Assembly: GCA_013540605.1 (NCBI GenBank)
Contig: JABVCK010000007.1
Span: forward strand, 27,231 to 91,230
Direction: 5' to 3'
DNA from: Bacillota bacterium
GTDB lineage: Bacteria; Bacillota; Clostridia; Ch29
Length of the DNA stretch: 64,000 bases
Shown: positions 6,204-29,411 of the stretch, piece after piece
How positions within the stretch are numbered: the stretch's first letter is position 1
How the letters are laid out: the number at the start of each line of letters is the position of its first letter
Notes under the pieces: model-generated
Databases searched by the model: none
What the model was told of the DNA's origin: nothing
Seen by the model: the letters and a program-made list of their open reading frames with translations, nothing else
Program-made: the position numbers and the translations under genes

Positions 6204-6385
6204 TAGTTCGTAGTTGGTAGTTCGTAGTTCGTAGTTCACAGATCGCAGATCACAGTTTGCAGATCCTAGATCCTAGATCTTAGATCTTAGGTGCTAGTCA
6301 CTAATCACTGGCCACTAGTTACTGATTTCTGAAGTCTGACGTCTGTCATCTGGTCACTGATCACTGACCACTGATCACTGTACTG
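6204..6385. repeat. Heptad array A: 25-26 consecutive 7-nt units in perfect register
   Basis: Units counted by hand: TAGTTCG TAGTTGG TAGTTCG TAGTTCG TAGTTCA CAGATCG CAGATCA CAGTTTG CAGATCC TAGATCC TAGATCT TAGATCT TAGGTGC TAGTCAC TAATCAC TGGCCAC TAGTTAC TGATTTC TGAAGTC TGACGTC TGTCATC TGGTCAC TGATCAC TGACCAC TGATCAC. Confidence 0.95.
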
Positions 6386-7116
6386 AGAACCGCAAAAACT
6401 GTCAGGAACAGCACCGAGCATATTTCCCCAACAGCCCCCAGCGTATCTCCTGTCATCCCCCCTATTTTCCTGTCAAACAACCGGATATAGCCAAGAACAG
6501 CAGCAGTAGCCGCAGCGATGGATATTACCGTGCATAACGCTCCCGTTAAATAGTAAAGTATCATACCGGTCAGGGCCCCGGAAAAAAGCGCATCCTTCCA
6601 TCCCACACCCTTTATAAAGAGGCTCCCCAGACCGTCTTCCCTCGCGTTTTTGGAAAATGACGCCCCTAGAACCATGGAAAGTCTGGACAGCACGGGCATG
6701 GCCAGAACAGCCACCGGATTATTTATCGCCCTTATCAGGGACACCTTTAGCAGCAGGACTCCCGTTATGGCAAGGACGCCATGGGTACCTAAGCGGCTGT
6801 CCTTCATTACGGCTATCATCTCGTCCCCGTTTTTATTACTGAAAAGGCCGTCGAAGGTATCCCCAAGGCCATCCTGGTGCAGCCCGCCGGTGATCACGGT
6901 TTCCAGCAACACGGCAGCAACCGCTGCAACCAGGGTGTCAAATGCGGACAGCATCCTATAGGACGCCCAAAGGATTAGACCTATCACTGCCCCAACAATG
7001 GGAAACAGCTTCATCCCTTTCTGAAAGTCTGAGTCTTCTACCTGCAGTTGAATTGGTATGGGTAGAATCGTAGTAAACTGGAGCATTAACAGCAGCCTTT
7101 TCATCTCACCACTCAA
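6361..7116 (-). CDS. cobS: Adenosylcobinamide-GDP ribazoletransferase (cobalamin synthase)
   Basis: 251 aa polytopic membrane protein. LQFTTILPIP ... HQDGLGDTFDG are CobS motifs. The start is ambiguous (TTG at 7116 or ATG at 7104). The last 7 codons and the stop lie inside heptad array A. Confidence 0.88.
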   Translation of the reverse strand: MSGEMKRLLLMLQFTTILPIPIQLQVEDSDFQKGMKLFPIVGAVIGLILWASYRMLSAFDTLVAAVAAVLLETVITGGLHQDGLGDTFDGLFSNKNGDEMIAVMKDSRLGTHGVLAITGVLLLKVSLIRAINNPVAVLAMPVLSRLSMVLGASFSKNAREDGLGSLFIKGVGWKDALFSGALTGMILYYLTGALCTVISIAAATAAVLGYIRLFDRKIGGMTGDTLGAVGEICSVLFLTVFAVLSTVISGQ

Positions 7117-7651
7117 TTCCTTCTCTCGCTGCTATACCCTGTTCAAAGGGATGCTTGACCATCTTCATCTCTGTCACAAGGTCAGCAATCTCTCTAATCG
7201 TGTCCGGAACATTCCGTCCGGTCAGTATAATTTCCATATTAGGAGGTTTTTCCTTCAGAAATTGGCATACTTCTTCCTCGGTTAACAATCCGTTATGCAG
7301 TACACCCATAATCTCATCAAGTATCAGTATATTGCAGTGCTCCTCACTGCATACTTTTTTTGCAAAATCGAAGGCATCCCTTATCTCTCTTCGCAGCTCT
7401 TCTTTCTCCTTATCATTAAGCGTCCAGAAAAATCCTCTATTCTTTTCAAATCGAAAAATCTGAAACCACGGCTCCAATTTCTTCACGCTTATCAGTTCCC
7501 CTGAATCTCCGCCCTTGAGAAACTGAACCATATAAACGGTATAACCATTGCCCACAGCCCTTAAGGCCTGCCCTAATGCTGCGGTGGTTTTACCCTTTCC
7601 ATCGCCGGTATAAATCTGTATCAAACCCTTATCAAGCTTCTTTTCTAGCAT
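7106..7651 (-). CDS. cobO: Cob(I)yrinic acid a,c-diamide adenosyltransferase
   Basis: IQIYTGDGKGKTTAALG P-loop and YMVQFLKG motif. The ATG at 7651 lies 9 nt after AGGAGG (the ORF track starts at 7657). Confidence 0.88.
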   Translation of the reverse strand: MLEKKLDKGLIQIYTGDGKGKTTAALGQALRAVGNGYTVYMVQFLKGGDSGELISVKKLEPWFQIFRFEKNRGFFWTLNDKEKEELRREIRDAFDFAKKVCSEEHCNILILDEIMGVLHNGLLTEEEVCQFLKEKPPNMEIILTGRNVPDTIREIADLVTEMKMVKHPFEQGIAAREGIEW

Positions 7652-7675
7652 CTGCACACACCTCCTGTTAAGGCC

Positions 7676-8233
7676 CTATTTTAGTCTGACAGGAATCCCC
7701 GACACCACCATAAAAACCCTGTCAGCATCGGCAGCAACGAGTTGATTAGCCCGTCCGGCGATATCCCTGAATATTCTGCCCAACGGATTATCGGGAACCA
7801 GCCCCATGCCAACCTCATTCGATACCACCATTCCCAGATTCGACCATGTCCTTATCCCCTTCAACGTCTCGGTTACCTCTCTCATTACCGCTTTCTCAAA
7901 CGCGTCTATCCGTTTTCTGTCCCACTTCTCAGGGTCCTCGCCCGTATCCATAAGGAGGTTGGTAACCATGACCGTAAGGCAGTCCAGAAGAATCCCATGA
8001 TACCTTTCCCCGTCGCTGTCAAGTTTCGCCTTTATCGACCTGTAGGCTTCAAGGGTCTGCCAGAATGACGGACGGCTTTCCCGGTGGCGCTTTATCCTTT
8101 CCTTCATCTCTTCATCTATCGGCAGCGCAGATGCAATATACAGGATTTTGTGACCCTGTTCCATGGCCAGTCTCTGGGCATAGGTGCTTTTCCCGCTCCG
8201 GGCGCCGCCGGTTATAAAAATCAGTTCTCCCAT
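7676..8233 (-). CDS. cobU: Bifunctional adenosylcobinamide kinase / adenosylcobinamide-phosphate guanylyltransferase
   Basis: 185 aa. LIFITGGARSGKS P-loop, with length and context typical of CobU/CobP. Confidence 0.88.
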   Translation of the reverse strand: MGELIFITGGARSGKSTYAQRLAMEQGHKILYIASALPIDEEMKERIKRHRESRPSFWQTLEAYRSIKAKLDSDGERYHGILLDCLTVMVTNLLMDTGEDPEKWDRKRIDAFEKAVMREVTETLKGIRTWSNLGMVVSNEVGMGLVPDNPLGRIFRDIAGRANQLVAADADRVFMVVSGIPVRLK

Positions 8234-8763
8234 CCTTCTACCTTCCCTTTTGCGATCGTTACGCCTTCCAACTCCAAAAGCCTCCTTTTTATGTCAATCC
8301 CCCCGCCATAGCCTACAAGACTTCCGTCACTTCCGATCACCCTATGACAGGGTACTATAATAGGCACGGGATTCCTGTTATTGGCCTGGCCTACCGCCCG
8401 GACCGCTCGGGGGGCTCCTGTTGCGGCTGCTATATCCTTATAGGTTGCCGTTCTCCCATAGGGTATTTGCAGCAGTGCCTGCCAGACGCGGCGCTGAAAG
8501 GCTGTGCCTTTAAGGTCAAGCCCAACCGAAAAGTGGCTCCTCCGGCCCGCCAGGTATTCTGTGATCTGTCTTTCTATGTCTCTGGCTGTATCATCGCAGG
8601 CTTCTTCCAAAGTATACCCTCTGAAAAACCTGTCGGCCCAGCGGGCCAATCCTTCTTCCGTTTCCTTTGGCAGGGACAGCCGGCACAGCCCCTTTCCGGT
8701 ATATGCTGCCGTCATACTGCCTATGGCGGTTTCGAAAGAATAGCACTTCAAAACATTACCCAT
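8221..8763 (-). CDS. ogt: Methylated-DNA--protein-cysteine methyltransferase
   Basis: PCHRV active site with GYGGG downstream. Start chosen at the internal ATG 8763 (MGNVLKCYSF...). It overlaps the upstream DUF2225 stop by 8 nt and the cobU start by 13 nt. Confidence 0.85.
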   Translation of the reverse strand: MGNVLKCYSFETAIGSMTAAYTGKGLCRLSLPKETEEGLARWADRFFRGYTLEEACDDTARDIERQITEYLAGRRSHFSVGLDLKGTAFQRRVWQALLQIPYGRTATYKDIAAATGAPRAVRAVGQANNRNPVPIIVPCHRVIGSDGSLVGYGGGIDIKRRLLELEGVTIAKGKVEGWEN

Positions 8764-9445
8764 TTTTTCTATCCTCCTCTGCCTGCTGCCTGGCAGCAGA
8801 CCATTGCTCCCTTGCCATTTTCTCAATTATCGGCTTATTGTGCCGGGCTTCGTGGGACACCACCTGGCTGAACCATTTTATAGCATCGTTATAGTGCCCA
8901 AGCCTCCTGTTCAACTCACCTATCAAATATATTACCGCAATCTCATCGGATTTGTCCATCAGCCTCTCATGCTGGTAGGCTTCCCTGTAATGCTCGAGGG
9001 CATACTGCAGGAACCTCTTTTCCTCAGCTCTATCTTCCTTATACCGGTTGATCCACGCAAGCCTTAGACAGATTTGTGCAAAAGTGCCGGGCCTCTTATC
9101 CCTCCTCAACTGGCTGCATATCAGAACCAGCTTATAGGCATCCAGGGCATCATCCAGGGTTCTCCGCCCTCCCAGATCCCTTTGCTTCCATTTCCTGCCT
9201 ATCCCTTCAAATATCCTGTTAACATCTTTTTCATCAATGCTGCTAAAACTGTTGTATATAGAGGAATAGCCGCACATCGGGCACACCACTGCCTCGTATA
9301 GCATGGGATTTTCAAACTTGTAATGTAGACAAAAATCCGCATCCCTGCTTTCAACTATGCTCCTGCTGGTTTTTACCCTGGTAGTTCTGAATTCCACTCC
9401 GCACACCGGACAGTTCATTTTTACCTGATACAACGCATTGTCCAT
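8756..9445 (-). CDS. DUF2225 domain protein (zinc-ribbon + TPR-like)
   Basis: 229 aa. Two CxxC pairs (CPVCG ... CPMCGY) followed by a helical repeat region, as in DUF2225. Confidence 0.75.
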   Translation of the reverse strand: MDNALYQVKMNCPVCGVEFRTTRVKTSRSIVESRDADFCLHYKFENPMLYEAVVCPMCGYSSIYNSFSSIDEKDVNRIFEGIGRKWKQRDLGGRRTLDDALDAYKLVLICSQLRRDKRPGTFAQICLRLAWINRYKEDRAEEKRFLQYALEHYREAYQHERLMDKSDEIAVIYLIGELNRRLGHYNDAIKWFSQVVSHEARHNKPIIEKMAREQWSAARQQAEEDRKNG

Positions 9446-9508
9446 CTGTCACATTCCTCATTTCGTCATCTGATTTTGTTATTTCCTGATTCCTATAAAA
9501 ATGTTCTG

Positions 9509-9541
9509 TATAAAAAATAAAATTCCTGCATAAACAGGAAA
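9509..9541 (-). terminator. Rho-independent terminator (minus strand)
   Basis: Minus strand reads TTCCTG(tttatg)CAGGAA followed by TTTTATTTTTT. Confidence 0.8.
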
Positions 9542-9728
9542 CTCAATCTTTAAACTACACAAACAGGGGGACACAGGACAAACATGGGGACAGGGACCAT
9601 ATTTGGTTGTTGTAAGCCCAGGGCTGTCAAACGAACTACCTGTCCCCTTGTTTGTGTGTGATAATACCCGCTGCCGCTTTTGATTCTCTGTTGCCTTGGC
9701 ATCCTTCATCACCCAATTTATAGTTTAT
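9510..9728 (-). ncRNA. Candidate sRNA with two C-rich GUCCCCNUGUUUGU motifs (RsaE/RoxS-like)
   Basis: Minus-strand promoter TTGACG-17 nt-TAAACT (9763..9735). About 215 nt downstream is a strong terminator. The RNA contains GUCCCCAUGUUUGUCC and GUCCCCCUGUUUGUGU just before the terminator, plus a complementary G-rich segment CACAAACAAGGGGACAGG. Confidence 0.45.
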
Positions 9729-9734
9729 AGACAT

Positions 9735-9763
9735 AGTTTACCAATAAAGGATGTATTCGTCAA
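9735..9763 (-). promoter_or_regulatory. Sigma-A-like promoter of the sRNA candidate
   Basis: TTGACG, 17-nt spacer, TAAACT, read on the minus strand. Confidence 0.45.
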
Positions 9764-9769
9764 GACACC

Positions 9770-9805
9770 AGAACCGTCCCCTTGTCTAGAACCGTCCCCT
9801 TGTCT
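9770..9805. repeat. Perfect 18-bp tandem duplication AGAACCGTCCCCTTGTCT x2
   Basis: Read directly. Lies immediately upstream of the sRNA-candidate promoter. The same 16-mer CAGAACCGTCCCCTTG recurs twice at 49131-49176. Confidence 0.9.
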
Positions 9806-9862
9806 ATACGCAACCTGGGCAATTCTTTGACACTTAGAATGGGTAGTAACAGTAACAAAAAA

Positions 9863-10165
9863 CTACTTTTCGAGGTTACCTAATGGTTCAAAACTATTAA
9901 ATATTCCAAGAATTCGATAAATTTCACCATCTTCAAGCCGTATCTTATAAATTGAGAAAAGATAATGGTTCTCTCTTTCTACATTTCCCTTATCATAAAA
10001 TACATATTGAATTATTTCTTTTTGTAAATACGACCTCAACACCTCATCTTCTATCTCATACTGTCCACCTTCCATTATCCAATTAGCAAGATATCCTCCA
10101 CCTGGATTTGTGATAAACAGTATTATTACTATTGCAATTACTGCAATTGCTATTTTATTGTACAC
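9863..10165 (-). CDS. Hypothetical small membrane-anchored protein
   Basis: 100 aa with an N-terminal TM helix (IAIAVIAIVIILFI). Sits in a visibly AT-rich stretch. No family recognised with confidence. Confidence 0.5.
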   Translation of the reverse strand: MYNKIAIAVIAIVIILFITNPGGGYLANWIMEGGQYEIEDEVLRSYLQKEIIQYVFYDKGNVERENHYLFSIYKIRLEDGEIYRILGIFNSFEPLGNLEK

Positions 10166-10341
10166 AACCGTGCTACCCCCTTCCTAGTATAATCGCTTTT
10201 CTTTATTATACAGAATTATACAGAGGTAGTATCCCTATAGCTATTATATGTTTACTATGTCAGCACAATGATATGGAATACTACCTCAAGATTTAATCAG
10301 GTGTTTTGATGTTGTTGTTTATACATCGGCATCTATTATTC

Positions 10342-11445
10342 CTAGTCAACTATTGTAAATATATAGAATATATATTGATTATCTTCACTATATTTTCTAT
10401 AAACATTTACTGGAGTATTGGACCAAGTATCATGAATTATATAATATTCTTGATCTGGGTAATCAATATTGTATCTATATCCTGTAAAAGTAACATAGTG
10501 ATTTCCATATTCTGGGTGGAAAAGATAAAGAAGGGCACCTGGCCTGTCAGCATTTATTTCATTTTTTATCTTTGTATAAGAAACTGACATACTACGAGAC
10601 ACATCGAATACCCCATTATATGGAATATCCATATAATCTTGCAGACCATACCAGAATCCTATCGGTTGTGTTACCATGCCTTCACAATCCATTAGCTCAT
10701 ACAGCCTATCAATTACATCCTCTTCATCTTGTGTTGCCTGATTAACTAGGTTAGGATACCCATTTCCATCCCAATAATACACGATATTTGCACCTGTAGT
10801 TGGGCCACATGCTCTATACCATTGGATATCAGGAACATTAAGGTTTTTTTCTACTATAGTTGCCATCGGTATAACATCTTCAAATTCCTTGTTAGAATAG
10901 CCTGCTGATATTTCTTTTACTTCCATTAGTTTTCTTGCAGCGCTAGCCGCATCAACCGATACTCGAACTTCACTATCCATTGTGAAGTCTATTATTTCCT
11001 CTTTTGCGTTTTCATCATTCTTACCCTTTACGGCAATGCCATACATAGTAGGGCCATCATATAACATCTTAATATCTTTATTTTTAAATTTATCGCCCTT
11101 GGCTTTAATGTATTCTGATAAGTAATCATCATAGGGTGATTGCGATGCAGCAAATTCAATTATTTCTTCACTATTTGGATTTACTAACAGATATCCTACT
11201 ATATCTTCACTATGTTTAACATGAAATAGGTAAGCTGAAAGGTTCCCTTCTGAATTATAGAGTTCAATCCTTTTCCCTAGCTTTTCTCCATCCCATATCT
11301 GAAAACCTTCGTGTTTTGATATTTCGTTGATGAAGCCTTCAACTTTTCTTTCTATTGAATTTTTTGAATTTTCATTTGCCAATGCACCGACTGATAGCAT
11401 ACTAATTAGCATGCATGCAATTAACAACCCAATTAGCTTTTTCAT
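10342..11445 (-). CDS. Secreted protein with C-terminal papain-like/C39-like cysteine peptidase domain
   Basis: The ATG at 11445 follows a GGAGGA RBS (the ORF track starts at 11463). Signal peptide MKKLIGLLIACMLISMLSVGALA. The YRACGPTTGANIVYYW motif resembles the catalytic Cys region of C39-like/BtrH-type peptidases, with a later HYVTFTGY His region. Confidence 0.6.
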   Translation of the reverse strand: MKKLIGLLIACMLISMLSVGALANENSKNSIERKVEGFINEISKHEGFQIWDGEKLGKRIELYNSEGNLSAYLFHVKHSEDIVGYLLVNPNSEEIIEFAASQSPYDDYLSEYIKAKGDKFKNKDIKMLYDGPTMYGIAVKGKNDENAKEEIIDFTMDSEVRVSVDAASAARKLMEVKEISAGYSNKEFEDVIPMATIVEKNLNVPDIQWYRACGPTTGANIVYYWDGNGYPNLVNQATQDEEDVIDRLYELMDCEGMVTQPIGFWYGLQDYMDIPYNGVFDVSRSMSVSYTKIKNEINADRPGALLYLFHPEYGNHYVTFTGYRYNIDYPDQEYYIIHDTWSNTPVNVYRKYSEDNQYIFYIFTIVD

Positions 11446-11463
11446 TCGAATTCCTCCATTCAT

Positions 11464-11695
11464 ATTTTTTTAATTCTTATTTACGCTAATATTTAACAGA
11501 CAAAATCCTCATAAGCACCACTCCTCCCTCTCCGAATCTCCTTTACCTTTACAGAGACCGGAGAGGGAGATATAATAGACTTAACTCCCGGCCTGTCTCT
11601 GGCAGGTAAAGGGTTGGTCCCTGCCGGTGTCGGTCTTGGCTAGAGCTTGTGCATCGGCAGGGATGTTTATTTGCTGTGATGTCTTTCCGTGATCT
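11464..11695 (-). promoter_or_regulatory. Long structured 5' leader of the peptidase gene with alternative helices
   Basis: Extended -10 promoter TGTATAAT on the minus strand near 11700. The leader contains CCCTGCCG...CGGCAGGG, CAGAGAC...GTCTCTG and an 11-bp perfect stem CTCCCTCTCCG...CGGAGAGGGAG that competes with an upstream CCGGGAG. Confidence 0.4.
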
Positions 11696-11881
11696 GTATC
11701 TTAATTATACAGCGAACGAGATGCAAAATGCGGATTTCGGAACGAAAGTGTCATTTTCGGGAACAAAAATGCATTTTTATCCTAATATTTTTCATATGTA
11801 GCCTAAATATTGAACTTTTTCATCATTTCATCTGTCTTTTCCACCATTCTTTTCCCGAAACGGGTAAGCAACAGAGTCTGC

Positions 11882-11914
11882 ATAAAAAAATAAAATTCCT
11901 GTTTATGCAGGAAT
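11882..11914 (-). terminator. Rho-independent terminator of the VanW gene
   Basis: Minus strand reads TTCCTG(cataaa)CAGGAA followed by TTTTATTTTTTT. It is a near-copy of the terminator at 9509-9541. Confidence 0.8.
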
Positions 11915-11923
11915 TTTATATCC

Positions 11924-13321
11924 TTAGGCCGGTGTATCCGCTTCTTCGACATCAGTATTGGCGCTGATGTCGTCAGGACCCCTTCGTATCAAGCCGTTCT
12001 CCGGTTTGTAATAATCGGATGACAGCAGCTCTTCCTTCTGTGGTTCCCCGTTGATTATCACTTGCCTATAGGTTTTGACCCTGTATCCTTTCCGCGCTTC
12101 CTTTTCTACAACCTGTTCGCCAACTCCGAGGGTGGGGTCTATAACGGTCTCCACAACTGGCTCAATGACATTCACGGTTTCGGTCCGGATTTTGACCTTG
12201 ATGTCCTCCTCCCTTTCCTCGCCGTAAATGGCTGCATATATCCTGTTACCGCTGACCCAGCTGGCGATATAAATATGCCCATCCGTATTGTTTCTGAACC
12301 GGAAATCCAGTACCTTATCCACCACCGTGGCGTCCTGCCCCATATTAACATAGGCCGACGGAATTGTATGGTTGTGCCTCTCTACAATCTCCAGGTTGGC
12401 ATAGAGAACAGCATTGTAAAGGGTGCTTGATACCTGGCATACTCCGCCTCCGATCCCGGGAACCAGTTCCCCTTTGAAAATTACAGGGGCTTCCTGGTAA
12501 CCGTTTTCAGCAATTCTCGGACCCGTTACCTGGTTAAAGGAAAACTCCTCTCCAGGCTTCAGCACACTACCCTCAATAGCTGTCGAAGCAATTTTCAGGT
12601 TTTCGCTTCTGCCTGTGCTCTGGGTGTTAAAAACCGTGGAAAAAACACTCCATCGTGAGCTTATTCTTTCAAGCTTTTGCCCGGTTACTTCCGGTATCTT
12701 AGTCTCAACAACAAGCTGCTTTGGCGAAAAATCCATTCTCCGCAAATCCGCTGCGATTTCATCAACTGTTGTATCTATATCTACTCCTATTCCGTATACT
12801 TCAGGAGTAACAATAAACTCTTCTCCCGCCCGTCTAATGGTCGCATTTACGGGTGGTGTCGAGATTTCCCTGTCAATTCTCTCAAGAAAAGCCCTCAAAG
12901 CAAGGGCATCAAAATTGAATTCGAGCTCGACCTCCTCTCCGTTCTCTTTTAAGTCCATGATTTTTTTGATCCTATCCATAGGATTGCCATCCCTGCCAAT
13001 CCCGTAGGCCTTCTCGACCGCCTTATAATAACTGAATGTGCCTCCGATACCGTCGAGGTTTATTTCCCACGTGCCGCCGCCGTAGTTTAACGTTAATTTC
13101 TCCCGCTGCAGCACAGGCTTCATCACAGCTTCAACAGCATTTACCGCTTCCTGCTGGCTCATGCCCCCCACGTCTATACCGTTGATTTTTATTCCTTCAT
13201 AGATTATTTCCCTGTTCAGGGAAAAGAAGACCAGGGCAAGGCTCATAAGCAATGCCAGTCCCATCAATCCTGCTCCGATTTTTGGCCATCGTGGTGCAAA
13301 GGCCCTTTCTGCTGTACTCAT
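11924..13321 (-). CDS. VanW family protein with C-terminal G5 domain
   Basis: 465 aa. N-terminal TM anchor, VanW core (GGGVCQVSSTLYNAVLYANLEIVERHNH) and a C-terminal G5-like segment (KGYRVKTYRQVIINGE). Confidence 0.85.
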   Translation of the reverse strand: MSTAERAFAPRWPKIGAGLMGLALLMSLALVFFSLNREIIYEGIKINGIDVGGMSQQEAVNAVEAVMKPVLQREKLTLNYGGGTWEINLDGIGGTFSYYKAVEKAYGIGRDGNPMDRIKKIMDLKENGEEVELEFNFDALALRAFLERIDREISTPPVNATIRRAGEEFIVTPEVYGIGVDIDTTVDEIAADLRRMDFSPKQLVVETKIPEVTGQKLERISSRWSVFSTVFNTQSTGRSENLKIASTAIEGSVLKPGEEFSFNQVTGPRIAENGYQEAPVIFKGELVPGIGGGVCQVSSTLYNAVLYANLEIVERHNHTIPSAYVNMGQDATVVDKVLDFRFRNNTDGHIYIASWVSGNRIYAAIYGEEREEDIKVKIRTETVNVIEPVVETVIDPTLGVGEQVVEKEARKGYRVKTYRQVIINGEPQKEELLSSDYYKPENGLIRRGPDDISANTDVEEADTPA

Positions 13322-13466
13322 GATAATCCCCCAAACAATGAAATCCCCTTAATAAATACATATTATTATAATGCAAAATAATACTATGTACCCTTGAAAC
13401 AATCATATATTTAAAACCGGTCTTGTTCAATATCCAATAATCACTCTTACTGGCATCTATTTGAAG

Positions 13467-15455
13467 TCAGCTTCTCGTCCAGGATATGGATATTTCATCA
13501 CCATCGCTTATAATATCAGTATATCTCGCTTTAATCCCGTTCACGGCCAGCTCTACCTTTCCCTTCGCCCTGCTCAGGTCTACATCAATATGGTTGAAAA
13601 TATCAACAAAAATATATGGCTCCGGCCTCTGGGGAAGTTTGACCTCCTCTCCGTTAACTCTTACTGTTATTCCAACCCCGTCCGGGATTGGTTTATCCAT
13701 GCAATATTCTATGCTGTCGCCATTGCTGAGCGCATATTCATAAGCAGCGGGCCTGCCATTGACCCTGTATGAGCAGCCTTGCTTTGGAAGTTCGCAGCTG
13801 TCAATGAGTTCTCCGAGGGTCCTGATTCTTGTTATTTCAAGCCTATCGCCATCCGAAATATACCGGTCGGGAGGTGCAGCAGCACCATTGATGCTCCACC
13901 TGGCCGGAAGGGTTATCCTTTTACCTGCGACTATAACCTGACAGGATTCCGAATGAACAATATCCTTTATTGTAATACGGGCTTTCTCTCCTTTCAGGGC
14001 ATCATACACAAAAACTTCATCTCCATTTTTCAGAGGCCGGTCAAGGGATCCTGCTTCTCCGTTTATCAGTATCCTTGCCGGCTGCCCCGGTTCTCCCTTG
14101 ATTTCCCTTGCCTCGCCGTTGACGAAGAACCTTAACGGCTCGCCCCTGGAAGAAATGAGTTTCCTTGGGTTGAACCCTATTGCCAGCAGGGCGTCGCTCA
14201 CGGTCATCTGCCTGGTGTTCAGCATTCTGAGATTATTACCGTTGACGGATATGCCGATAAAATGGTCTCCGGATGCCCTATAACCGGCTAAAGCTATGCC
14301 AACCGGAGTAATCATCTCTGGTCCGGAGAAATCCGGCACCAATAGTTTTAAGGCGCTGTTCTCCTCCAGGTGTTTTAAGCCCACCCTGGTGACAGGCAGA
14401 CCCAGGTGGCAGGACAGGCTTTCCTTAAGCCCCGGTGTCAGACTGCCTCCTCCAACGCAGAATACTGCGCTCGGTGCCCCTTGATTGTTTTCCTTTATGC
14501 TGTCAGCTATATCAGCCGCAAGTTTTTCAACAATAGGATGTATTATATCAATCAACTGTGCCCTGCTTATCTCCGCCTCATCTCCCAGGGCATTTCTATA
14601 ACTAACTCTGTCCTTGCCCTTTGACGCCTCCAGCTTGATTCTTTCTGCCGTGTTGAAGTCGGTTAAAAGTTTCTGGGCGATTTCTTCTGTGATTTCGTCC
14701 CCTGCCACCGAGACCATGGAGTATGCAGTTATCGTACCGGCCCGCGTTATTGCTATATCCGAAGTCCCGGCGCCGATGTCCACCATTGCAAGGTTGAGCA
14801 GCCTCAGGTTTTCCGGGATGGCAACTCTTATGGCCGCAATAGGCTCCAGAGTGAGATTGATTACTTCAAGACCTGCCCGCTCCATCACTGTATAAAGGCT
14901 GTCAACAACCGTTCTGGGCAGGAATGTGGAAATGACTTCCACTCCCATGCTTGTTCCCCTATGTCCCTCCAGGCTTTTTATTATCATGTTGTCAAGATAG
15001 TAGTTTATCACGCTGTATCCAACACAGTAATAGTTGGAGTGGTTCTTATAGCGCTCCTGGACTTCCTGCTGGGCTTTCTGCATGGCCTTGAGCTCAAGAC
15101 CGCTGATAAACGCCTTATCTGCAACATCCATACCCTCTACATCCATTTCAGCCAAAGCTCTATGGGTTATCAAGGACCTTCCTGCCGCAGCAATGGCAAC
15201 GTGATTGAGGGTACAACCGTTCCTTTCCTCCAGTTTTTCCTTAACCCGTTTGACAACGCCGGTTACCTGGGTAATGTCGTGTATTTGTCCATCATACATA
15301 TTTCTATCCGTATGCTCCATGATCTCCGCATCAAAGATTTCAAAGTAATCCCGGTCCGGACTACCGTTTCCCAGTATGCCTACAACCGTACGCGTCCCGA
15401 TATCTAAAGCAAAAATCGTATTAGCGCACTTATCATGCACAGTACTCACCACCAA
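13467..15455 (-). CDS. FtsA/actin-like ATPase domain protein with repeated C-terminal beta-grasp-like modules
   Basis: 662 aa. N-terminal about 400 aa is an FtsA-like sugar-kinase/actin fold (FALDIGTRTVVG, DIGAGTSDI, GGGS). The C-terminal about 260 aa contains 4 copies of (I/V)NG-x9-12-(N/D)GD-x-(I/V/L). Confidence 0.7.
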   Translation of the reverse strand: MVVSTVHDKCANTIFALDIGTRTVVGILGNGSPDRDYFEIFDAEIMEHTDRNMYDGQIHDITQVTGVVKRVKEKLEERNGCTLNHVAIAAAGRSLITHRALAEMDVEGMDVADKAFISGLELKAMQKAQQEVQERYKNHSNYYCVGYSVINYYLDNMIIKSLEGHRGTSMGVEVISTFLPRTVVDSLYTVMERAGLEVINLTLEPIAAIRVAIPENLRLLNLAMVDIGAGTSDIAITRAGTITAYSMVSVAGDEITEEIAQKLLTDFNTAERIKLEASKGKDRVSYRNALGDEAEISRAQLIDIIHPIVEKLAADIADSIKENNQGAPSAVFCVGGGSLTPGLKESLSCHLGLPVTRVGLKHLEENSALKLLVPDFSGPEMITPVGIALAGYRASGDHFIGISVNGNNLRMLNTRQMTVSDALLAIGFNPRKLISSRGEPLRFFVNGEAREIKGEPGQPARILINGEAGSLDRPLKNGDEVFVYDALKGEKARITIKDIVHSESCQVIVAGKRITLPARWSINGAAAPPDRYISDGDRLEITRIRTLGELIDSCELPKQGCSYRVNGRPAAYEYALSNGDSIEYCMDKPIPDGVGITVRVNGEEVKLPQRPEPYIFVDIFNHIDVDLSRAKGKVELAVNGIKARYTDIISDGDEISISWTRS

Positions 15456-15528
15456 TTCTTCACTTCTCTAATATATTCCTTAATATATTCTTTGCATTGG
15501 AAGCAATTCCTTCTTTGTCTCCCTTACC

Positions 15529-16215: not shown

Positions 16216-16254
16216 GGAAATCCTCCCCAGTCCCCTTTCCTTATATACTATCTA

Positions 16255-16387: not shown

Positions 16388-16404
16388 AGGTGTGTCCCCT
16401 TTCC

Positions 16405-16686: not shown

Positions 16687-16740
16687 GGCGCTTACCCTCC
16701 AATCAATAAGCCGCCTCTTAACCGGAAGCGGCTCACCTGA

Positions 16741-20354: not shown

Positions 20355-20479
20355 CAGCTTGTAGTTCGTAGAATATAGATCTCAGTTGGCAGATCGCAGT
20401 TCGCAGGATTTTTAACTGACATCTGATAACTGATCACTGGCAACTGGCAACTGATAGCTGAACACTGTCCACTGGCAAA
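20352..20479. repeat. Heptad array C, about 17 units with one -1 register slip
   Basis: Begins at the htrA TAG stop. Reads TAGTTCG TAGAATA TAGATCT CAGTTGG CAGATCG CAGTTCG CAGGATT ... TGATAAC TGATCAC TGGCAAC TGGCAAC TGATAGC TGAACAC TGTCCAC. Confidence 0.9.
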
Positions 20480-20485
20480 GATTTA

Positions 20486-20507
20486 AGCCGGTCCTGACGG
20501 ACCGGCT
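20486..20507. terminator. Hairpin terminator between convergent htrA-like and B3/4 genes
   Basis: AGCCGGTCC(tgac)GGACCGGCT is a 9-bp GC-rich stem. T-tracts are weak on both sides. Confidence 0.55.
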
Positions 20508-20517
20508 GTAACTTTGA

Positions 20518-21219
20518 TTATATGTTAATCTCCATATTTCGGCTGTCAACGAAATGCTTTTCCACCTTACATTTAAAATATTTCTCCAGAAAACTTGCCA
20601 GCCTGTTCCTTGCTTCCAAAACCCTGTCGCAGTTTTCTCCCCTGAACCCGTCTATCGGGAAGAAAATGTTCCGGCTTTCTTCGGTTATTTTACCCCTGTC
20701 ACTCTGCCGCCAAATCCACCTTCTTGTTCTGACCCGTTTGCTGTCTGCATAAACCAGTTCGCCAACGTCGACCTGCTCTTCTTCTTCTGTTCCCAACGGA
20801 ATGAAAGTATCGCCTTCTACCGCCAGTCTTACCTCAATATTTCCTTCCAGGGCATCCATGTCATGGGCTCCCATGGGCAGTAAATACGTCAATGACATAG
20901 CATTACACAGGTCAACAACACCGTTTATGGAAGGCAGATCATTTCCTTTAGCTACCCTTTTCACCATCGCCTCGATCGAGCTTGGATATTTGTTGGGATT
21001 AAATCCGAGCTCGCTGAAGGCGTTCCTGTAGGGCACAATGCTTCTGTGGACTTTTATATCATTCCCGTTTATTTCGGCCCTGATGCTTTCGCATGCTCTC
21101 TCAAGCAATTCTTGTATTTCGGCTATCTTCTTTTTATTGTTTATGCCGTACCCAACAACTACCCCGAAGCATGCATTTGGCAATTTTTCAAATACTTCTG
21201 GATATACAACGAACTTCAT
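20518..21219 (-). CDS. B3/B4 tRNA-binding-domain-like protein
   Basis: 233 aa. Resembles stand-alone B3/4 domain proteins (related to PheT B3/B4). N-terminus MKFVVYPEVFEKLPNACFGVVV. Confidence 0.65.
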   Translation of the reverse strand: MKFVVYPEVFEKLPNACFGVVVGYGINNKKKIAEIQELLERACESIRAEINGNDIKVHRSIVPYRNAFSELGFNPNKYPSSIEAMVKRVAKGNDLPSINGVVDLCNAMSLTYLLPMGAHDMDALEGNIEVRLAVEGDTFIPLGTEEEEQVDVGELVYADSKRVRTRRWIWRQSDRGKITEESRNIFFPIDGFRGENCDRVLEARNRLASFLEKYFKCKVEKHFVDSRNMEINI

Positions 21220-22098
21220 TTACTTAACCTCCTTCTTCTCAGTTGCAGTTATGAATATATACAGTCCTGCTATGATCACAGCGCCACCCACAGCCTGGAC
21301 AAGGGTGGGAAGTTCCCGCAGGACAAGTATTGCCAGTATTGTAGCTCCCACCGGTTCTCCCAGCATTGCAATAGAAACTACCGTGGCCTGAACATACTTC
21401 AATGCCCAGTTAAATATGCTGTGCCCCAACAAAGTAGGTACAATCGCCAGGGCAAGGTAAAGCGCAATATTCATCGGAGGACCCGGGCTTAACGGTGTTG
21501 ATGTTCCCAATGCAATCATCAGCAACACCAGGGTACAACTCCCATAAACGACAAAAGTGTACGGCGTCAGCGACATCCTCTGCCTCAAGCCTCTGCCGAT
21601 CAAAAAATAGCCCGCAATAAAGAATGCCCCGGCAAGGGCGAGAATATCCCCCAAAAATGCCTCACTGTTCAGCCGGAAATCCGAAATGCTTATAAAGATG
21701 CCGCCCGCAAGCGCCAGAAACGTACCGAACAGCGCCCTGTTGGAAACCCTCTCCCTGAAAAGAATATAGGAGCCTACAAGGACAAAAATGGAATGGGTGT
21801 TTACTAAAACCGTAGAACTCGAAACCGTAGTATACCAGAGTGAGGATATCCATGTGTAAAAATGCAGGGCAAGAAAAATTCCGCTAAGGGCTGCCGTCAT
21901 TAGATCCTTTTTGGTTAGAGCTTTGAGCTCATCCCTGTACTTCAGAAGGGTGGACGGAGTCAATAAAACAAAGGTTATTCCCAGCCTGTAAAGGGATATT
22001 ATAATGGGAGGCGCCTCCACAAGCCGTATCATTATGGACGCGCTTGACACGCCCAAAACCCCAAAAAGTACAACAAGATATGGATTTAGCGCCATCAT
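21220..22098 (-). CDS. DMT superfamily (EamA-like) transporter
   Basis: 292 aa, about 10 TM helices in two EamA-like halves. Confidence 0.8.
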   Translation of the reverse strand: MMALNPYLVVLFGVLGVSSASIMIRLVEAPPIIISLYRLGITFVLLTPSTLLKYRDELKALTKKDLMTAALSGIFLALHFYTWISSLWYTTVSSSTVLVNTHSIFVLVGSYILFRERVSNRALFGTFLALAGGIFISISDFRLNSEAFLGDILALAGAFFIAGYFLIGRGLRQRMSLTPYTFVVYGSCTLVLLMIALGTSTPLSPGPPMNIALYLALAIVPTLLGHSIFNWALKYVQATVVSIAMLGEPVGATILAILVLRELPTLVQAVGGAVIIAGLYIFITATEKKEVK

Positions 22099-23204
22099 GT
22101 TATCCTCCTTTCCCGAACCTCCTTCAGGGAGAGTTCCGCTTCTGATCTCACATCAGCATCCTTTTCACAATCAAGCATATTCTGAAGAATCCTGACCGCT
22201 CTGCTTCCGCCAATCCTCCCCACCGCCCACGCAGCATGCGCCCTTAGCATCGGTGAAGGGTGTTTCGATATACTTGCAAGGATGTCAAGCCCTTCCTCTT
22301 TTTTAAAATTGCCCAGGGCTATGACCGCATTTCTTTTTAGAACGTTCAGACCCCTCCATGCCAGGGACCTGGTGCCAAATTTTTTGTTGAATTCCCTTTT
22401 ATCCATCTGAAGCAATTCAATCAGATCTATAGCATTATCCCGATCCTTAAAGGATATAGTATCTCTATTATGGGGGCACGCCTGCTGGCACCTGTCACAG
22501 CCGTATATGCTTGTCCCCATTTTGGGCCTTAGTTCCCTGGGCACTATACCCCTCATTTGTGTCAGATAGGATATGCATTTTTTTGCGTTGAGAGTATACG
22601 GGGCTATCAGCGCCCCTGTAGGGCACGTATCTATGCATAGGGTACATGCGCCGCATTCTCCGGAGCCTGGCGTGTCCGGTTCAAGCTCGATATTGGTAAG
22701 CATCTCTCCCAACAGGATGCCGGAGCCGAACCCCGGACAGATAATCGAACAGTTTTTGCCATACCACCCGATACCGGCCCTGTAGGCAACCTCCCTGTCC
22801 ACCAAAGGCCCTGTATCCACCATTATACTATACCTGAAGCCTTTAATTCTACTTTTTATATATAACGCCAGCTGTTCAAGGCGGGATTCGATAACCCTGT
22901 GGTAGTCTTCTCCTACAGCAAACCCGGACAAAACGCCTTTGGGACAATCTCCTTGTTTTTCACATCCTCCTGGCGGGAACTTATAGGATAGCCCCACTGC
23001 GATTATGCTTTTAACATCTTCAAGATGGAGACCGGGGCATATCCTATCATCCCGGCTGCCTGGCTCCATTCCCGACAAGTACCCGCATCTCTCTCTTTCC
23101 TCAAGGATTTCCCTTATCCTTTCCAATTCACCGGCGTGGGTAAACCCTACCAAATCGAGACCTATTTCATTCGCTGTTTTTCGTATCTCTTCCCTGGTAA
23201 TCAT
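22095..23204 (-). CDS. queG: tRNA epoxyqueuosine(34) reductase
   Basis: 369 aa. Two 4Fe-4S motifs (CGACTLCIDTCP, CDRCQQACP) and C-terminal HEAT-like repeats, as in QueG. 4-nt overlap with the downstream gene. Confidence 0.85.
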   Translation of the reverse strand: MITREEIRKTANEIGLDLVGFTHAGELERIREILEERERCGYLSGMEPGSRDDRICPGLHLEDVKSIIAVGLSYKFPPGGCEKQGDCPKGVLSGFAVGEDYHRVIESRLEQLALYIKSRIKGFRYSIMVDTGPLVDREVAYRAGIGWYGKNCSIICPGFGSGILLGEMLTNIELEPDTPGSGECGACTLCIDTCPTGALIAPYTLNAKKCISYLTQMRGIVPRELRPKMGTSIYGCDRCQQACPHNRDTISFKDRDNAIDLIELLQMDKREFNKKFGTRSLAWRGLNVLKRNAVIALGNFKKEEGLDILASISKHPSPMLRAHAAWAVGRIGGSRAVRILQNMLDCEKDADVRSEAELSLKEVRERRIT

Positions 23205-23336
23205 ATATACCCATTACCTCCGCTGCCAAACGCTGTCCTAGAGTTATAGTTATATTATAACATTTCCTTATCTCTTCCAAAACTTTAAACTAACTTCTGT
23301 ATCTTTTGCGGCCTCATATGGTGTAAAATAGTAATA

Positions 23337-23480
23337 TAGTTCGTAGATCACAGATCGCAGGTCGCAGGTGCAAGATCACAGATCACAGGTACTAGATTAT
23401 AGTTCGTAGTTCGTAGTTCGTAGTTGGCTGCTGGCAACCTAGAACTGATAACTGGGAACTGACAACTGAGAACTGATATG
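23337..23480. repeat. Heptad array D, 20 units in perfect register
   Basis: TAGTTCG TAGATCA CAGATCG CAGGTCG CAGGTGC AAGATCA CAGATCA CAGGTAC TAGATTA TAGTTCG x3 TAGTTGG, then TGGCAAC CTAGAAC TGATAAC TGGGAAC TGACAAC TGAGAAC. Ends 10 nt before the AGGAGG RBS of the next gene. Confidence 0.95.
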
Positions 23481-23506
23481 ACATTAAAAAAGGAGGTTTG
23501 AATCTT

Positions 23507-24673
23507 ATGAAGTTTTCGAGTAAAATGGACAAACTGGGTTCGGCAATATTTGCTGAGCTTAAGGCCAGAAAGGACGCCTTAACCGCGCGCGGCATAAGTC
23601 CCATAGACCTGAGCGTGGGCTCACCGGACCGCCCTCCGGCGCCGCATATTCTGCAAGCGCTAAAGGAAGAAGTGGCTGACCCGGGCAATTATGTCTATGC
23701 CATAAGCGATCTTCCTGAACTCCTCGAAGCGGTGAAGGGATGGTATAAAGTGAGATTCGGCGTGGAGCTTGACCCGGCTGCGGAGATCACTTCACTGATA
23801 GGATCCCAGGACGGTCTGGCCCATATCTCCCTTACCATTGTTGACCCCGGCGATGTAGTCCTGGTTCCCGATCCCGGCTACCCGATTTTCAGCGCAGGTC
23901 CTGCCATAGCGGGCGCAGAGCTTGTGAAGATGCCTATGCTTGAAGAAAATGGTTTTCTGATCGACTTCGATTCCATAGACCCTGCCGATGCAAAAAGGGC
24001 AAAGTTTATGATCGTATCCTACCCGAATAATCCGGTTACAGCCCTTGCCACCGATGAGTTTTACCGGGACCTGATTGATTTCGCCAAAAAATACGATATT
24101 GTTGTGCTGCATGACAACGCCTACTGCGAGCTGGTCTTTGACGGTTACAGGGTTGGGAGTTTCCTGTCCTATCCGGGGGCCATGGATGTTGGAGTAGAAT
24201 TCAATTCTCTGTCAAAAACTTACAATATGGCAGGATGCAGAATAGGCTTCGCCATTGGCAACAGGGAGGTTATTAAAAACCTCAAGATAATGAAATCAAA
24301 TATAGATTACGGCATATTTTTGCCCATACAGAAGGCAGGTATTGCCGCGCTGACCGGCCCCCAGGACACAGTGAGAGAAACAGCTTTAGCTTACCAGAAC
24401 AGGCGGGATGTACTTATCAACGGATTGAACGAAATAGGATGGCCGATTGAAAAACCCAGGGCAACCATGTTTGTATGGGCAAAAATCCCTGAGAAGTTCG
24501 ATAGTTCCATGAACTTCGTACTTCAGTTGATAGAGAATACCGGAGTACTGGTGACACCGGGAATTAGTTTCGGAGACAGGGGTGAAGGTTTTGTCCGTAT
24601 GGCCCTTGTTCAGAACGAAGACCTTATGAGGGAAGCCATAGACAGAATCGATGCCAGCGGGATACTGAGGTAA
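23507..24673 (+). CDS. Class I/II PLP-dependent aminotransferase
   Basis: The ATG at 23507 follows AAGGAGG (the ORF track starts at TTG 23498). SLSKTYNMAGCRIG PLP-lysine motif and NPTG-like YPNNPV segment. Confidence 0.85.
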   Translation: MKFSSKMDKLGSAIFAELKARKDALTARGISPIDLSVGSPDRPPAPHILQALKEEVADPGNYVYAISDLPELLEAVKGWYKVRFGVELDPAAEITSLIGSQDGLAHISLTIVDPGDVVLVPDPGYPIFSAGPAIAGAELVKMPMLEENGFLIDFDSIDPADAKRAKFMIVSYPNNPVTALATDEFYRDLIDFAKKYDIVVLHDNAYCELVFDGYRVGSFLSYPGAMDVGVEFNSLSKTYNMAGCRIGFAIGNREVIKNLKIMKSNIDYGIFLPIQKAGIAALTGPQDTVRETALAYQNRRDVLINGLNEIGWPIEKPRATMFVWAKIPEKFDSSMNFVLQLIENTGVLVTPGISFGDRGEGFVRMALVQNEDLMREAIDRIDASGILR

Positions 24674-26643: not shown

Positions 26644-26656
26644 GACCTTAATCACC

Positions 26657-28105: not shown

Positions 28106-29077
28106 TCAACTGTTAAAAAGTTCATATTCCATCCTTGACAGGTTTTCAGGCAGTGTTGTAACAATTTCCTTTCCTTCAAGGTAATCGAACAATGGTGTTG
28201 CCCTTTCAAAAACCAGCTTATCCGCATATAAAAACTGCCGCTTCAGGCCATACCTGTCCCGTAACTGTTTGTTCACATCCGCATCTCCGTATTTGGCGTC
28301 GCCGACAATAGGATGGCCGCTGTAAGCAAGATGCGCTCTTATCTGATGTGGCCTGCCCGTTACAAGCTTGATCTCCAGGAGCGTAAATCCCAGGTCGCTT
28401 ATGTCCAGGGGCCTATACACCGTATGTATTCTTTTACTCCCTTCAACATTATGGTTGTAGACCTTGACCGTATTAGTAGTTTCTTCTTTTTTCAAAAATC
28501 CTTCCATGCTGCCGTCCCTGCTTATTATTCCTTTGACCACAGACTTGTAATACTTGCCCACCCATTTCTCCTTGATCATATGGTTCATTTCCTGTAATGC
28601 CTTGAGATTTTTGGCCGCAATAACCAGCCCTCCTGTGTTCCTGTCCAGCCTGTTGCAGAGAGCCGGAGCAAAGGTCTGCTCCCTCTCCGGAGAGTACTCG
28701 CCCTTTGCATAGAGGTAAAATATGACCTGGTCCACAAGGCTTTCCTGATTCTGCTTGTCGGGATGCGACAGAAGCCCTGCGGGCTTATCCACCACAACTA
28801 TGTTTTCATCTTCGTAGACCACTTTGAAGTCCACTGAAGTCTCCGGTACGGTCGCACCAGACCGGGGCCTTCGCGCATTGTCAAGTTGTGCGTATATCTG
28901 TATAGCATCTCCCTCTGTCAGGATGTGGGAAGGATGCACCCTTTGATTATTCAGCTTGACCATTTTCTTTCTCAGCATCTTGTAGACAAGCCCGGCAGGC
29001 ACCCCGTCAAGGTATTTTTTAAGGAACTTATCCAGCCTCTGCCCGCTGTCATTCCTGCCAACCCTTATTTCTTCCAT
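28106..29077 (-). CDS. RluA family pseudouridine synthase with N-terminal S4 domain
   Basis: 323 aa. S4-like N-terminus, HRLDRNTGG-like catalytic motif (NRLDRNTGG) and a HQIRAH segment. Confidence 0.85.
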   Translation of the reverse strand: MEEIRVGRNDSGQRLDKFLKKYLDGVPAGLVYKMLRKKMVKLNNQRVHPSHILTEGDAIQIYAQLDNARRPRSGATVPETSVDFKVVYEDENIVVVDKPAGLLSHPDKQNQESLVDQVIFYLYAKGEYSPEREQTFAPALCNRLDRNTGGLVIAAKNLKALQEMNHMIKEKWVGKYYKSVVKGIISRDGSMEGFLKKEETTNTVKVYNHNVEGSKRIHTVYRPLDISDLGFTLLEIKLVTGRPHQIRAHLAYSGHPIVGDAKYGDADVNKQLRDRYGLKRQFLYADKLVFERATPLFDYLEGKEIVTTLPENLSRMEYELFNS

Positions 29078-29102
29078 AAATCACTCACCAACCTCTTTTT
29101 AA

Positions 29103-29234
29103 GGTATGGGGACACACCGCTGCTACGCGGGTATTCCTTGCCGCGGAATGTCCCCGATCGGTATGGGGACACACCGCTGCTACGCGGGTATTCCTTGCCG
29201 CGGAATGTCCCCGATCGGTATGGGGACACACCGC
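29103..29234. repeat. 57-bp tandem repeat x2.3, each unit a GGGGACA...TGTCCCC-closed hairpin element
   Basis: The unit GGTATGGGGACACACCGCTGCTACGCGGGTATTCCTTGCCGCGGAATGTCCCCGATC occurs at 29103-29159 and 29160-29216 (identical), with a third partial copy at 29217-29234. Confidence 0.95.
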
Positions 29235-29238
29235 CTGT

Positions 29239-29411
29239 CAGTTCCCAGTTACCAGATGACAAACTTCAGTTGTCAGTTCCCGATTCCCAGTTGCCAGTGC
29301 ATAGGGTAAAGCTAGAGGGAAAAGACCTATAAGCTTTGCCTTAGCAACTACGAACTACCAACTACGAACTACGAACTAATATCGGGTACCTGCGATCTGC
29401 CATCTGCCATC
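29239..29411. repeat. Heptad array E (inverted orientation), two arms split by a 40-bp spacer
   Basis: Arm 1, 29239-29301: CAGTTCC CAGTTAC CAGATGA CAAACTT CAGTTGT CAGTTCC CGATTCC CAGTTGC CAGTGCA. The spacer has an AAAGCT/AGCTTT hairpin. Arm 2, 29342-29411: TAGCAAC TACGAAC TACCAAC TACGAAC TACGAAC ... TGCGATC TGCCATC TGCCATC. Confidence 0.9.

Follow-up and report, generated by a model that had tools for sequence, protein, structure and literature searches.

The window analysed here is a stretch of 64,000 nucleotides (nt) from an uncultured member of the Bacillota (assembly GCA_013540605.1, contig JABVCK010000007.1, positions 27,231 to 91,230). Its genes include those for cobalamin synthesis, DUF503, endonuclease III, an HtrA-like protease, QueG and aminotransferases, and a glycine reductase cluster lies directly beyond it. 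Five arrays of tandem 7-nt units (heptads), which we call A to E, sit between its Pfam-supported genes. All are intergenic, as an initial annotation made from the sequence alone had placed them, and they belong to the known class of intergenic heptanucleotide tandem repeats, not to a categorically new kind of element. The five arrays are:

Array A, 6204 to 6385, plus strand: 26 in-phase heptads, (TAGTTSG)5, (CAGATCR)4, (TAGATCY)4 and TAGGTGC, then TAGTCAC...(TGAYCAC)n
Array B, 16255 to 16387, minus strand: 18 in-phase heptads, YAG-first on the minus strand
Array C, 20352 to 20479, plus strand: 7 YAG-type and 9 TGR/ACTG-type units, with one register shift
Array D, 23337 to 23480, plus strand: TAGTTCG, (CAGRTCR)n, CAGGTAC, TAGATTA, (TAGTTCG)3, TAGTTGG, a short loop and (AACTGRN)5
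Array E, 29239 to 29411, minus strand: YAG-first on the minus strand, (CAGATNG)3, CAGGTAC, (TAGTTSG)5, a spacer of about 50 nt and (AACTGRN)n

Periodicity and unit composition of the arrays

Tandem Repeats Finder reported rows of period 7 (and of 14, 21 and 28) at all five loci. We also calculated lag-k identity in 84-nt sliding windows over the 64 kb, for lags of 2 to 15. Lag-7 identity exceeded 0.5 only at about 6160-6425, 16201-16437, 20342-20507, 23307-23516 and 29221-29451, with per-locus maxima of 0.64-0.81 and 377 window positions above 0.6. Lag 14, the second harmonic, reached 0.77 (145 positions), and no other lag rose above 0.56 anywhere in the window. At lag 7 no segment between 30 and 64 kb exceeded 0.5. 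Units of exactly 7 nt laid head to tail, the defining feature of intergenic heptanucleotide tandem repeats, are present at every locus; A and B hold their register over 26 and 18 units with zero slips, and C, D and E contain one register shift each. Both methods thus bear out the earlier description of five phased loci with zero or one slip, and the lag-7 scan agrees that there are no copies in 30-64 kb.

For comparison we read A, C and D on the plus strand and B and E on the minus strand. In this common orientation the 49 units of the 5' arm give the consensus Y-A-G-N-T-N-N, with A in 48 of the 49, G in all 49 and T three positions after the A in 47. The unit types are TAGTTSG, CAGATCR and TAGATCY, and CAGGTRC is frequent at the end of the arm. 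For the 45 units of the 3' arm the consensus is T-G-R-N-N-A-C, or ACTGRNN if the register is shifted, so the unit vocabulary proposed initially was correct. All five arrays are mosaics in which a (YAGNTNN)n arm is followed by an (ACTGRNN)n arm, and they are homologous to one another. Exact TAACTGA occurs five times in the ACTG arm (three times in B and twice in C) and never as two adjacent copies; the arm is a degenerate NAACTGR.

Within an array, units become less alike the further apart they lie. The mean Hamming distance between units rises steadily from 1.9 at a distance of one unit to 4.8 at a distance of 12 in array A, and from 2.1 to 5.8 over the same range in array B. This smooth growth of dissimilarity with separation is what repeated local duplication combined with point mutation predicts.

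The richness in GATC and CTAG that had been noticed by eye is pronounced. GATC occurs at 27.6 per kb in the arrays vs 1.9 per kb outside them, and CTAG at 11.8 vs 0.47 per kb, so that 15% of the GATC sites fall in 1.2% of the window's length. In the rest of the window no other 4-nt palindrome is as strongly avoided as GATC (observed/expected 0.54) and CTAG (0.39); the arrays are enriched in them 15- to 25-fold. This pattern may reflect a past or present restriction or methylation system specific for GATC.

The arrays had also been said to close all three reading frames. This holds for the YAG-first strand, where stops occur in every frame and the longest open stretch is about 39-60 nt, except for 116 nt in one frame of E. 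It fails for the opposite strand, which can stay open: one frame of array C has no stop at all, and the right end of array A encodes the last ~25 nt of CobS.

Homology between copies

Long strings of units recur at different sites. A and B share the previously reported 13-nt core GTGACTAGCACCT, and also CAGGTGCTAGTCACTRATCAC...TGATTTCTGA. D and E share CAGGTAC-(7 nt)-(TAGTTCG)n-TAGTTGG, and together with a copy on a metagenomic contig (L087) they share the broader string CAGGTRC-TAGATTA/CCGATAT-(TAGTTCG)n-TAGTTGG. The shared strings in A/B and in D/E/L087 support the view that these are homologous copies of one element type rather than random low complexity. The order of modules is not the same at every locus, as had been claimed: in D and E, CAGATCR units stand ahead of the TAGTTCG block, which makes the copies mosaics.

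Two further copies were found beyond the window. A sixth, F, lies antisense between plsX and rpoN, ~9 kb past the window start in a metagenome-assembled genome (MAG) of the same species, giving six copies in about 74 kb of same-species DNA. The seventh, L087, is a mosaic relative with an E-like spacer, CCCTCTAGCTTT; it begins at the stop codon of lonB, in the lonB 3' untranslated region (UTR), on a contig from another metagenome. When we scanned 3.24 Mb for at least four YAGNTNN units followed by at least three ACTGRNN units within 200 nt, this composite layout was found solely in the window and its same-species contigs. Within the 3.24 Mb, the layout of a YAG arm followed by an ACTG arm is a lineage-specific composite family with fixed polarity.

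Variation between strains and species

The same arrays are present in the NCBI MAG GCA_030017455.1, in one Joint Genome Institute (JGI) metagenome (3300001095) and in three Logan runs (SRR6186653, SRR9855028 and SRR17347038). These are independent assemblies from at least five samples, so the arrays are not assembly artefacts, a concern that had been raised at the outset. Array A is identical in three assemblies, and array C differs by one single-nucleotide polymorphism (SNP) among five. Array B differs from the same-species contigs L001 and L002 by two exact 7-nt indels, one unit gained on the left and one lost on the right, between identical flanks. In array D, the TAGTTCG/TAGTTGG block of the window has one unit more than that of L204, L205 and L207. 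B and D therefore show the whole-unit length polymorphism among close relatives that is characteristic of the class. The same-species flanks differ at only two points, by one base in the length of an A-run and by one SNP. A 57-nt tandem repeat beside E, described below, has 1.3 copies in the same-species MAG vs 2.3 in the window. Short-read contigs end inside B (L003 and L004), inside D and inside the 57-nt repeat.

A sister species (assembly SRR30852966), in which synteny is kept, QueG is 80% identical and the flanks align, shows larger changes. Its D site holds just TAGATGA AAACTGA, and the spacer there is 160 nt vs 302 nt in the window species, a difference of ~142 nt. Its E site has only the first ~5 units and lacks 292 nt, namely the TAGTTCG block together with the spacer, ACTG arm and 57-nt repeats. 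At the C site there is an orthologous array that has diverged and carries 7- and 8-nt indels, and heptads directly follow DUF503 before that contig ends. These comparisons show two levels of change, whole-unit steps between strains and the gain, loss or resizing of arrays between species, and both are much faster than the change in the flanks. Among GTDB species genomes the best QueG matches were only 56-57% identical and came from Clostridium-labelled MAGs, the matches being mostly from distant Clostridia and Bacteroidales; the three closest of these QueG loci (L005-L007) had no arrays within ±10 kb.

The same-species MAG GCA_030017455.1 also differs from the window by an insertion sequence (IS). 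It carries a 571-amino acid (aa) DDE_Tnp_1 transposase (L337, 4614-6329) between Fur-family and DUF362 genes, at a site corresponding to window positions ~4461-4602; the window and one Logan contig are without the insertion.

Heptad arrays in other genomes

We scanned metagenomes and viral contigs with the 15-mer TAGTTCGTAGTTSGT, and all figures from these scans are among the matches listed. Strong local heptad arrays accounted for 19 of 119 metagenomic and 4 of 120 viral matches, in organisms of 38-70% GC, and the rest were mostly short or chance matches. The scans therefore show that TAGTTCG arrays are widespread and reveal little about the present family. About one tenth of the metagenomic matches had an exact inverted arm, (CGAACTA)n, 60-160 nt downstream. 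In seven unrelated metagenomic or viral contigs (L150, L131, L137, L097, L118, L085 and L321), (TAGTTCG)n is followed at that distance by its exact reverse-complement array. The two together form long heptad-built palindromes, in some of which (L137) the order of units is mirrored.

A plasmid BLAST search with array A found two compound arrays of ~26 units each, in which the unit sequence drifts stepwise along the array. The one on Natrialba magadii pNMAG01 (~216150-216335) has GATTCGT, AGTTCGT, AGCTCGT and AGCTCAT in phase and lies between ppsA and an NDP-sugar synthase gene. The other, on the Mycetohabitans rhizoxinica megaplasmid (~138985-139175), has CTGATTA, CTGGTTA, CTGATCA and TCGGTCG in phase and lies between prpR and a GNAT gene. 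The phenomenon thus spans Archaea and Proteobacteria. A BLAST search of a phage collection with array A gave no match. Bacteroidales loci L029, L032, L036, L051, L056, L061 and L079 contain (CAATTGA/CAATGGA)n, (AACTTTA/AACCTTG)n or (GAATGTT)n; since these loci were chosen merely for QueG, heptad arrays seem to be common in Bacteroidales intergenic DNA.

Relation to described repeat classes

The initial annotation knew of no described repeat class that matched. Intergenic heptanucleotide tandem repeats are, however, already documented (PMC4679880, PMC4692102). Heptanucleotides are cited there as the most abundant long simple sequence repeats (LSSRs) in prokaryotes, non-coding and ascribed to polymerase slippage (Mrázek 2007, as cited in PMC4679880 and PMC4692102), and three tandem heptanucleotides are cited from Calothrix (PCC 7601) in PMC4692102. 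The survey of Mrázek (2007), as it is cited, deals with homogeneous repeats, whereas the present ones are compound, degenerate and homologous between loci.

The closest likeness in behavior is to the TAACTGA repeats, which are mixed with other heptamers in "assemblages" in Beggiatoaceae, Cyanobacteria and a few Bacteroidetes, with 7-nt indels between strains and contig ends within arrays (MacGregor 2015, PMC4679880). Like the present arrays, these are intergenic tandem 7-nt units, often right before start codons, with stops in all frames on the forward strand and an open reverse strand. They too vary by indels in 7-nt steps, break contigs, mix heptamers and have near-identical multi-heptamer regions at more than one intergenic site. 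In contrast, the present arrays contain no adjacent pair of exact TAACTGA, by which MacGregor recognized the family, their units are degenerate, they have an extra YAGNTNN arm in a fixed 5' position, and their host is a member of the Bacillota, which is not one of the phyla that the GenBank search in PMC4679880 turned up.

A second comparison is with the cyanobacterial short tandemly repeated repetitive (STRR) heptamers and the G-rich GGGAATC/GGGGAYT repeats of Xanthomonas and Nostoc: ~185 GGGAATC-type arrays per Xanthomonas genome, with related arrays in Nostoc, some heterogeneous or inverted, and variable between sister species at the same intergenic sites (Rehm 2015, PMC4692102). The likeness lies in intergenic arrays, hundreds per genome in that family, of 2-26 perfect or heterogeneous units, occasional inverted pairs, and length and sequence that vary between sister species at the same sites (PMC4692102). 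The present units differ in sequence, are not G-rich and are incapable of forming G-quadruplexes, and their types succeed one another in a conserved order. Bacillota are not among the hosts named in these heptamer-repeat reports. The match to a catalogued repeat therefore exists at the level of the class and does not extend to the exact sequence family, and the apparent novelty lies in the host phylum and in a two-arm architecture specific to the lineage.

Other kinds of element fit less well. A repetitive extragenic palindromic (REP) element is one palindrome of ~35 nt whose stem is strong. Like REP elements and the bacterial interspersed mosaic elements (BIMEs), the arrays are dispersed, intergenic, presumably co-transcribed and have hairpin potential, but their pairing is weak and periodic, their body is a tandem array and no inverted repeat was detected. 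A clustered regularly interspaced short palindromic repeats (CRISPR) array is ruled out, as the units are 7 nt long and contiguous without spacers vs repeats of 23-50 nt with unique spacers. Rfam 15, which had been proposed as a check, gave no match at gathering thresholds over the whole window, nor at the permissive E <= 1 over 5900-23800 and 28900-29800, and a tRNA/tmRNA search of the window found none.

Genomic setting of each array

Several further features accompany the arrays:

25-nt direct repeat, copy 1, 16230 to 16254, no strand assigned: 88% identical to 16394-16418; brackets array B
25-nt direct repeat, copy 2, 16394 to 16418, no strand assigned: brackets array B and overlaps the DUF503 stop codon
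GC-rich inverted repeat GCCGGTCCTGACGGACCGGC, 20487 to 20506, no strand assigned: between the convergent HtrA and B3_4 genes; kept in the sister species
Perfect 57-nt tandem repeat of 2.3 copies (GGTATGGGGACACACCGCTGCTACGCGGGTATTCCTTGCCGCGGAATGTCCCCGATC), 29103 to 29234, no strand assigned: between array E and the RluD-like start; strongly self-complementary
Promoter-like site TTGACA-16-TATTAT, 29422 to 29449, minus strand: directly upstream of array E; 11 of 12 matches, by consensus match alone

Array A lies between the minus-strand genes for CobS (stop 6361-6363) and a His_Phos_1 phosphatase (start 6184) and is antisense to both. Array B is intercistronic, between DUF503 (stop 16405) and endonuclease III (nth, start 16215), in the sense orientation; the 25-nt repeat around it is possibly a duplication made when the array was acquired. 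Array C begins at the TAG stop of the plus-strand HtrA-like protease gene and ends before the GC-rich inverted repeat, so that by position it is a sense-oriented 3' UTR element. Judged from its sequence, the inverted repeat at 20487-20506 is likely to be a terminator, although a simple terminator scan did not list it. Array D occupies the spacer between the divergent QueG and aminotransferase genes and ends ~10 nt ahead of the aminotransferase AAGGAGG (ATG at 23507), in the sense orientation and by position in the 5' UTR. Array E likely lies in the 5' UTR of an RluD-like pseudouridine synthase gene (start 29077), and its ~50-nt inter-arm spacer contains a small hairpin, GGCAAAGCT...AGCTTTACC. 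Judged from position only, the arrays would lie in transcribed spacers. Their orientation relative to transcription is sense in four cases (B, C, D and E) and antisense in one (A), or 5:2 with the two further copies, which is not significant.

The 57-nt repeat folds at -65.6 kcal/mol (z -4.2) and had no Rfam match. The motif GGGGACACACC is common to the flank of array B and the 57-nt repeat; a further copy at 61640, within an open reading frame (ORF), looks like a chance occurrence.

Other observations in the window

Unconnected with the arrays, the 14-mer GAACCGTCCCCTTG has four copies, which form two intergenic tandem pairs at 9771-9802 and 49134-49174 with spacings of 18 and 27 nt. The chance expectation is 0.3 matches, and the motif resembles a shared operator or small repeat. 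The interval 59705-60729 is ~1 kb without an ORF of at least 120 aa, running from a SPASM-domain gene fragment to the next gene, and had no Rfam match at gathering thresholds. Tandem Repeats Finder also reported a perfect repeat of 27 nt x 2 inside the endonuclease III ORF (15543-15596) and one of 21 nt x 3 with 80% matches at 58383-58445.

Slippage-driven compound repeats as the favored explanation

We favor the explanation that the arrays are dispersed homologous copies of a compound heptanucleotide element that grew by slippage, a Bacillota counterpart of the LSSR, STRR and TAACTGA-type repeats, whose effects on the cell, if any, are most likely a by-product. To this reading we assign a probability of roughly 0.7. 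A run of 7-nt units would grow, shrink and diversify through slipped-strand mispairing in whole-unit steps together with point mutation. Such an origin would account for a register held across unit types and for neighboring units being the most alike. The unit strings would then spread between sites by duplicative spread, non-allelic recombination or gene conversion, since the long strings common to different sites and the mosaic look of the copies imply spread of this kind or recombination or conversion between arrays. The arrays would persist in non-coding, mostly transcribed spacers on account of the stops that the YAG-first strand has in every frame. Any effect on the cell would most likely be a by-product of having spacers of variable length in 5' UTRs, 3' UTRs and intercistronic regions. 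Weak pairing of the YAG arm with the ACTG arm (5'-YAGUU-3' with 5'-AACUG-3') into a periodic, imperfect hairpin could also modulate mRNA stability or translation.

Several observations weigh against this explanation. Slippage alone does not account for matching runs of units, in the same order, at six or more sites that are unlinked, and neither a transposase nor a terminal inverted repeat nor a consistent target duplication was found. Three of four sites are occupied in both species. The differences in unit number rest on short-read assemblies, in which some assembly error is possible. The AG and ACTG cores are less variable than the rest of the unit (2 of 42 changes fall on AG in a minimum spanning tree; chi-square p = 0.02 for constraint by unit position), which could mean selection. 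However, units were assigned to arm and register partly by these same cores, so the test is partly circular and we do not rely on it. Lastly, array E folds significantly better than shuffled sequences, hinting at more than neutral DNA.

Alternative explanations

The folding of array E bears on the idea that the arrays serve as periodic RNA hairpins, in which 5-bp steps of pairing between the YAG and ACTG arms would alternate with 2x2 internal loops. By analogy with REP/BIME elements, such hairpins might act in UTRs as mRNA stabilizers, as RNase III or RNase Y processing sites or as modulators of translation. The core of the YAG arm, 5'-YAG(U)(U)-3', is the complement of that of the ACTG arm, 5'-(A)(A)CUG-3', where Y and G form either a G-C or a G.U pair. 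When we folded both strands of all arrays and compared them with dinucleotide shuffles, the predicted minimum free energy (MFE) structure was one long arm-to-arm hairpin in every array. The YAG-first strand was more stable than its complement in all five and had more G.U pairs in four. However, z was -2.9 to -3.2 for array E and only -0.4 to -1.4 for A-D. Since E alone beats its shuffles, the general idea of a stable hairpin loses weight. A repeat search reported no inverted repeats in any of the five regions, the arms are unequal in length in B, D and L087, and the strain indels are uncompensated between arms (a left gain and a right loss in B, a change on the left only in D). Five of the seven independent sites are sense-oriented, but copies A and F are antisense, and array D is dispensable in the sister species. 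In favor of hairpins, (TAGTTCG)n in other organisms frequently has an exact inverted (CGAACTA)n 60-160 nt downstream. On balance, we consider that the arrays are unlikely to function as hairpins.

One could go further and imagine, in place of neutral satellites, a lineage-specific post-transcriptional device, in which a YAG-N4 platform on the sense strand would be read in 7-nt register by an oligomeric HutP-like or other protein, its access gated by periodic pairing of the platform with the complementary ACUG-N3 arm and the number of sites tuned heritably by slippage, or else a new mobile hairpin element built of heptads. We regard either as speculative and distinctly improbable.

The spread of homologous copies might instead be due to a non-autonomous mobile element with a heptad body, similar to a miniature inverted-repeat transposable element (MITE) or mobilized through its hairpin, whose insertions would explain presence and absence between species. 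There are multiple unlinked homologous copies, the family recurs in a second genomic context at lonB, the sister species differs by clean presence and absence (of ~142 nt at D and of a block of 292 nt at E), and a 25-nt direct repeat brackets array B. Yet there are no terminal inverted repeats, D and E share no boundary termini, and no target duplication is consistent, the 25-nt repeat being confined to B. The "empty" D site retains one YAG and one ACTG unit, which collapse or expansion in place fits equally well, and the copies differ as mosaics and not as one consensus plus decay. A mobile element therefore seems to us very doubtful.

A more specific proposal is that an oligomeric RNA-binding protein, on the model of HutP, would use the YAG-N4 arm as a platform with multiple sites and read a trinucleotide every 7 nt. 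In the Bacillus subtilis hut leader, the HutP hexamer binds (XAG-N4)3 on each face, with (UUUAGUU)3 as the model RNA, and specifically contacts A, G and U7, the U three positions 3' of the A (PMC2425495). The Y-A-G-N-T-N-N consensus of the left arm fits these contacts, in B, C, D and E the sense strand has XAG every 7 nt (YAGNTNN x 5-13), and the host belongs to the phylum in which HutP was characterized (PMC2425495). However, HutP sites are two three-motif sets around a terminator upstream of hut genes, and that context is missing here: the five loci have neither hut genes nor a terminator with a three-motif site on each side. Each array has 5-13 units and not 3+3, the right arm is without XAG, and the invariance of AG is partly circular, having been used to set register and arm. 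None of ten small ORFs scanned in 30-64 kb is HutP-like. Heptad arrays with other units also occur in other phyla, in which we know of no HutP. Recognition by a HutP-like protein is thus highly improbable.

Finally, since 7-bp repeats in 5' UTRs are known phase-variation devices (PMC12721329, PMC8262952), the arrays could by analogy be contingency (rheostat) loci, in which unit number in the 5' UTR would tune downstream genes like the 7-bp repeats upstream of Haemophilus influenzae hmw1A/hmw2A. D and E do lie between a promoter-like site and a start codon, and the unit number of D differs between strains; but this seems remote. The neighbors are housekeeping genes, for an aminotransferase, a pseudouridine synthase, endonuclease III and cobalamin synthesis, and have no surface or host-interaction role. 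Of the seven copies, three lie 3' to the gene next to them (C and L087 sense, F antisense), A is antisense and intercistronic, and degenerate units would lower slippage rates.

Significance

Among the long simple repeats of prokaryotes, heptamers are the most common, and the arrays described here extend them to the Bacillota. The lineage provides a useful comparison set, with near-identical strains whose differences are mainly of whole units, together with a sister species in which one site is near-empty and another has ~5 units. This is a concrete system in which to study slippage rates and any effect at the RNA level. In practical terms, the arrays break short-read assemblies of the lineage, and they could serve as strain-typing markers.

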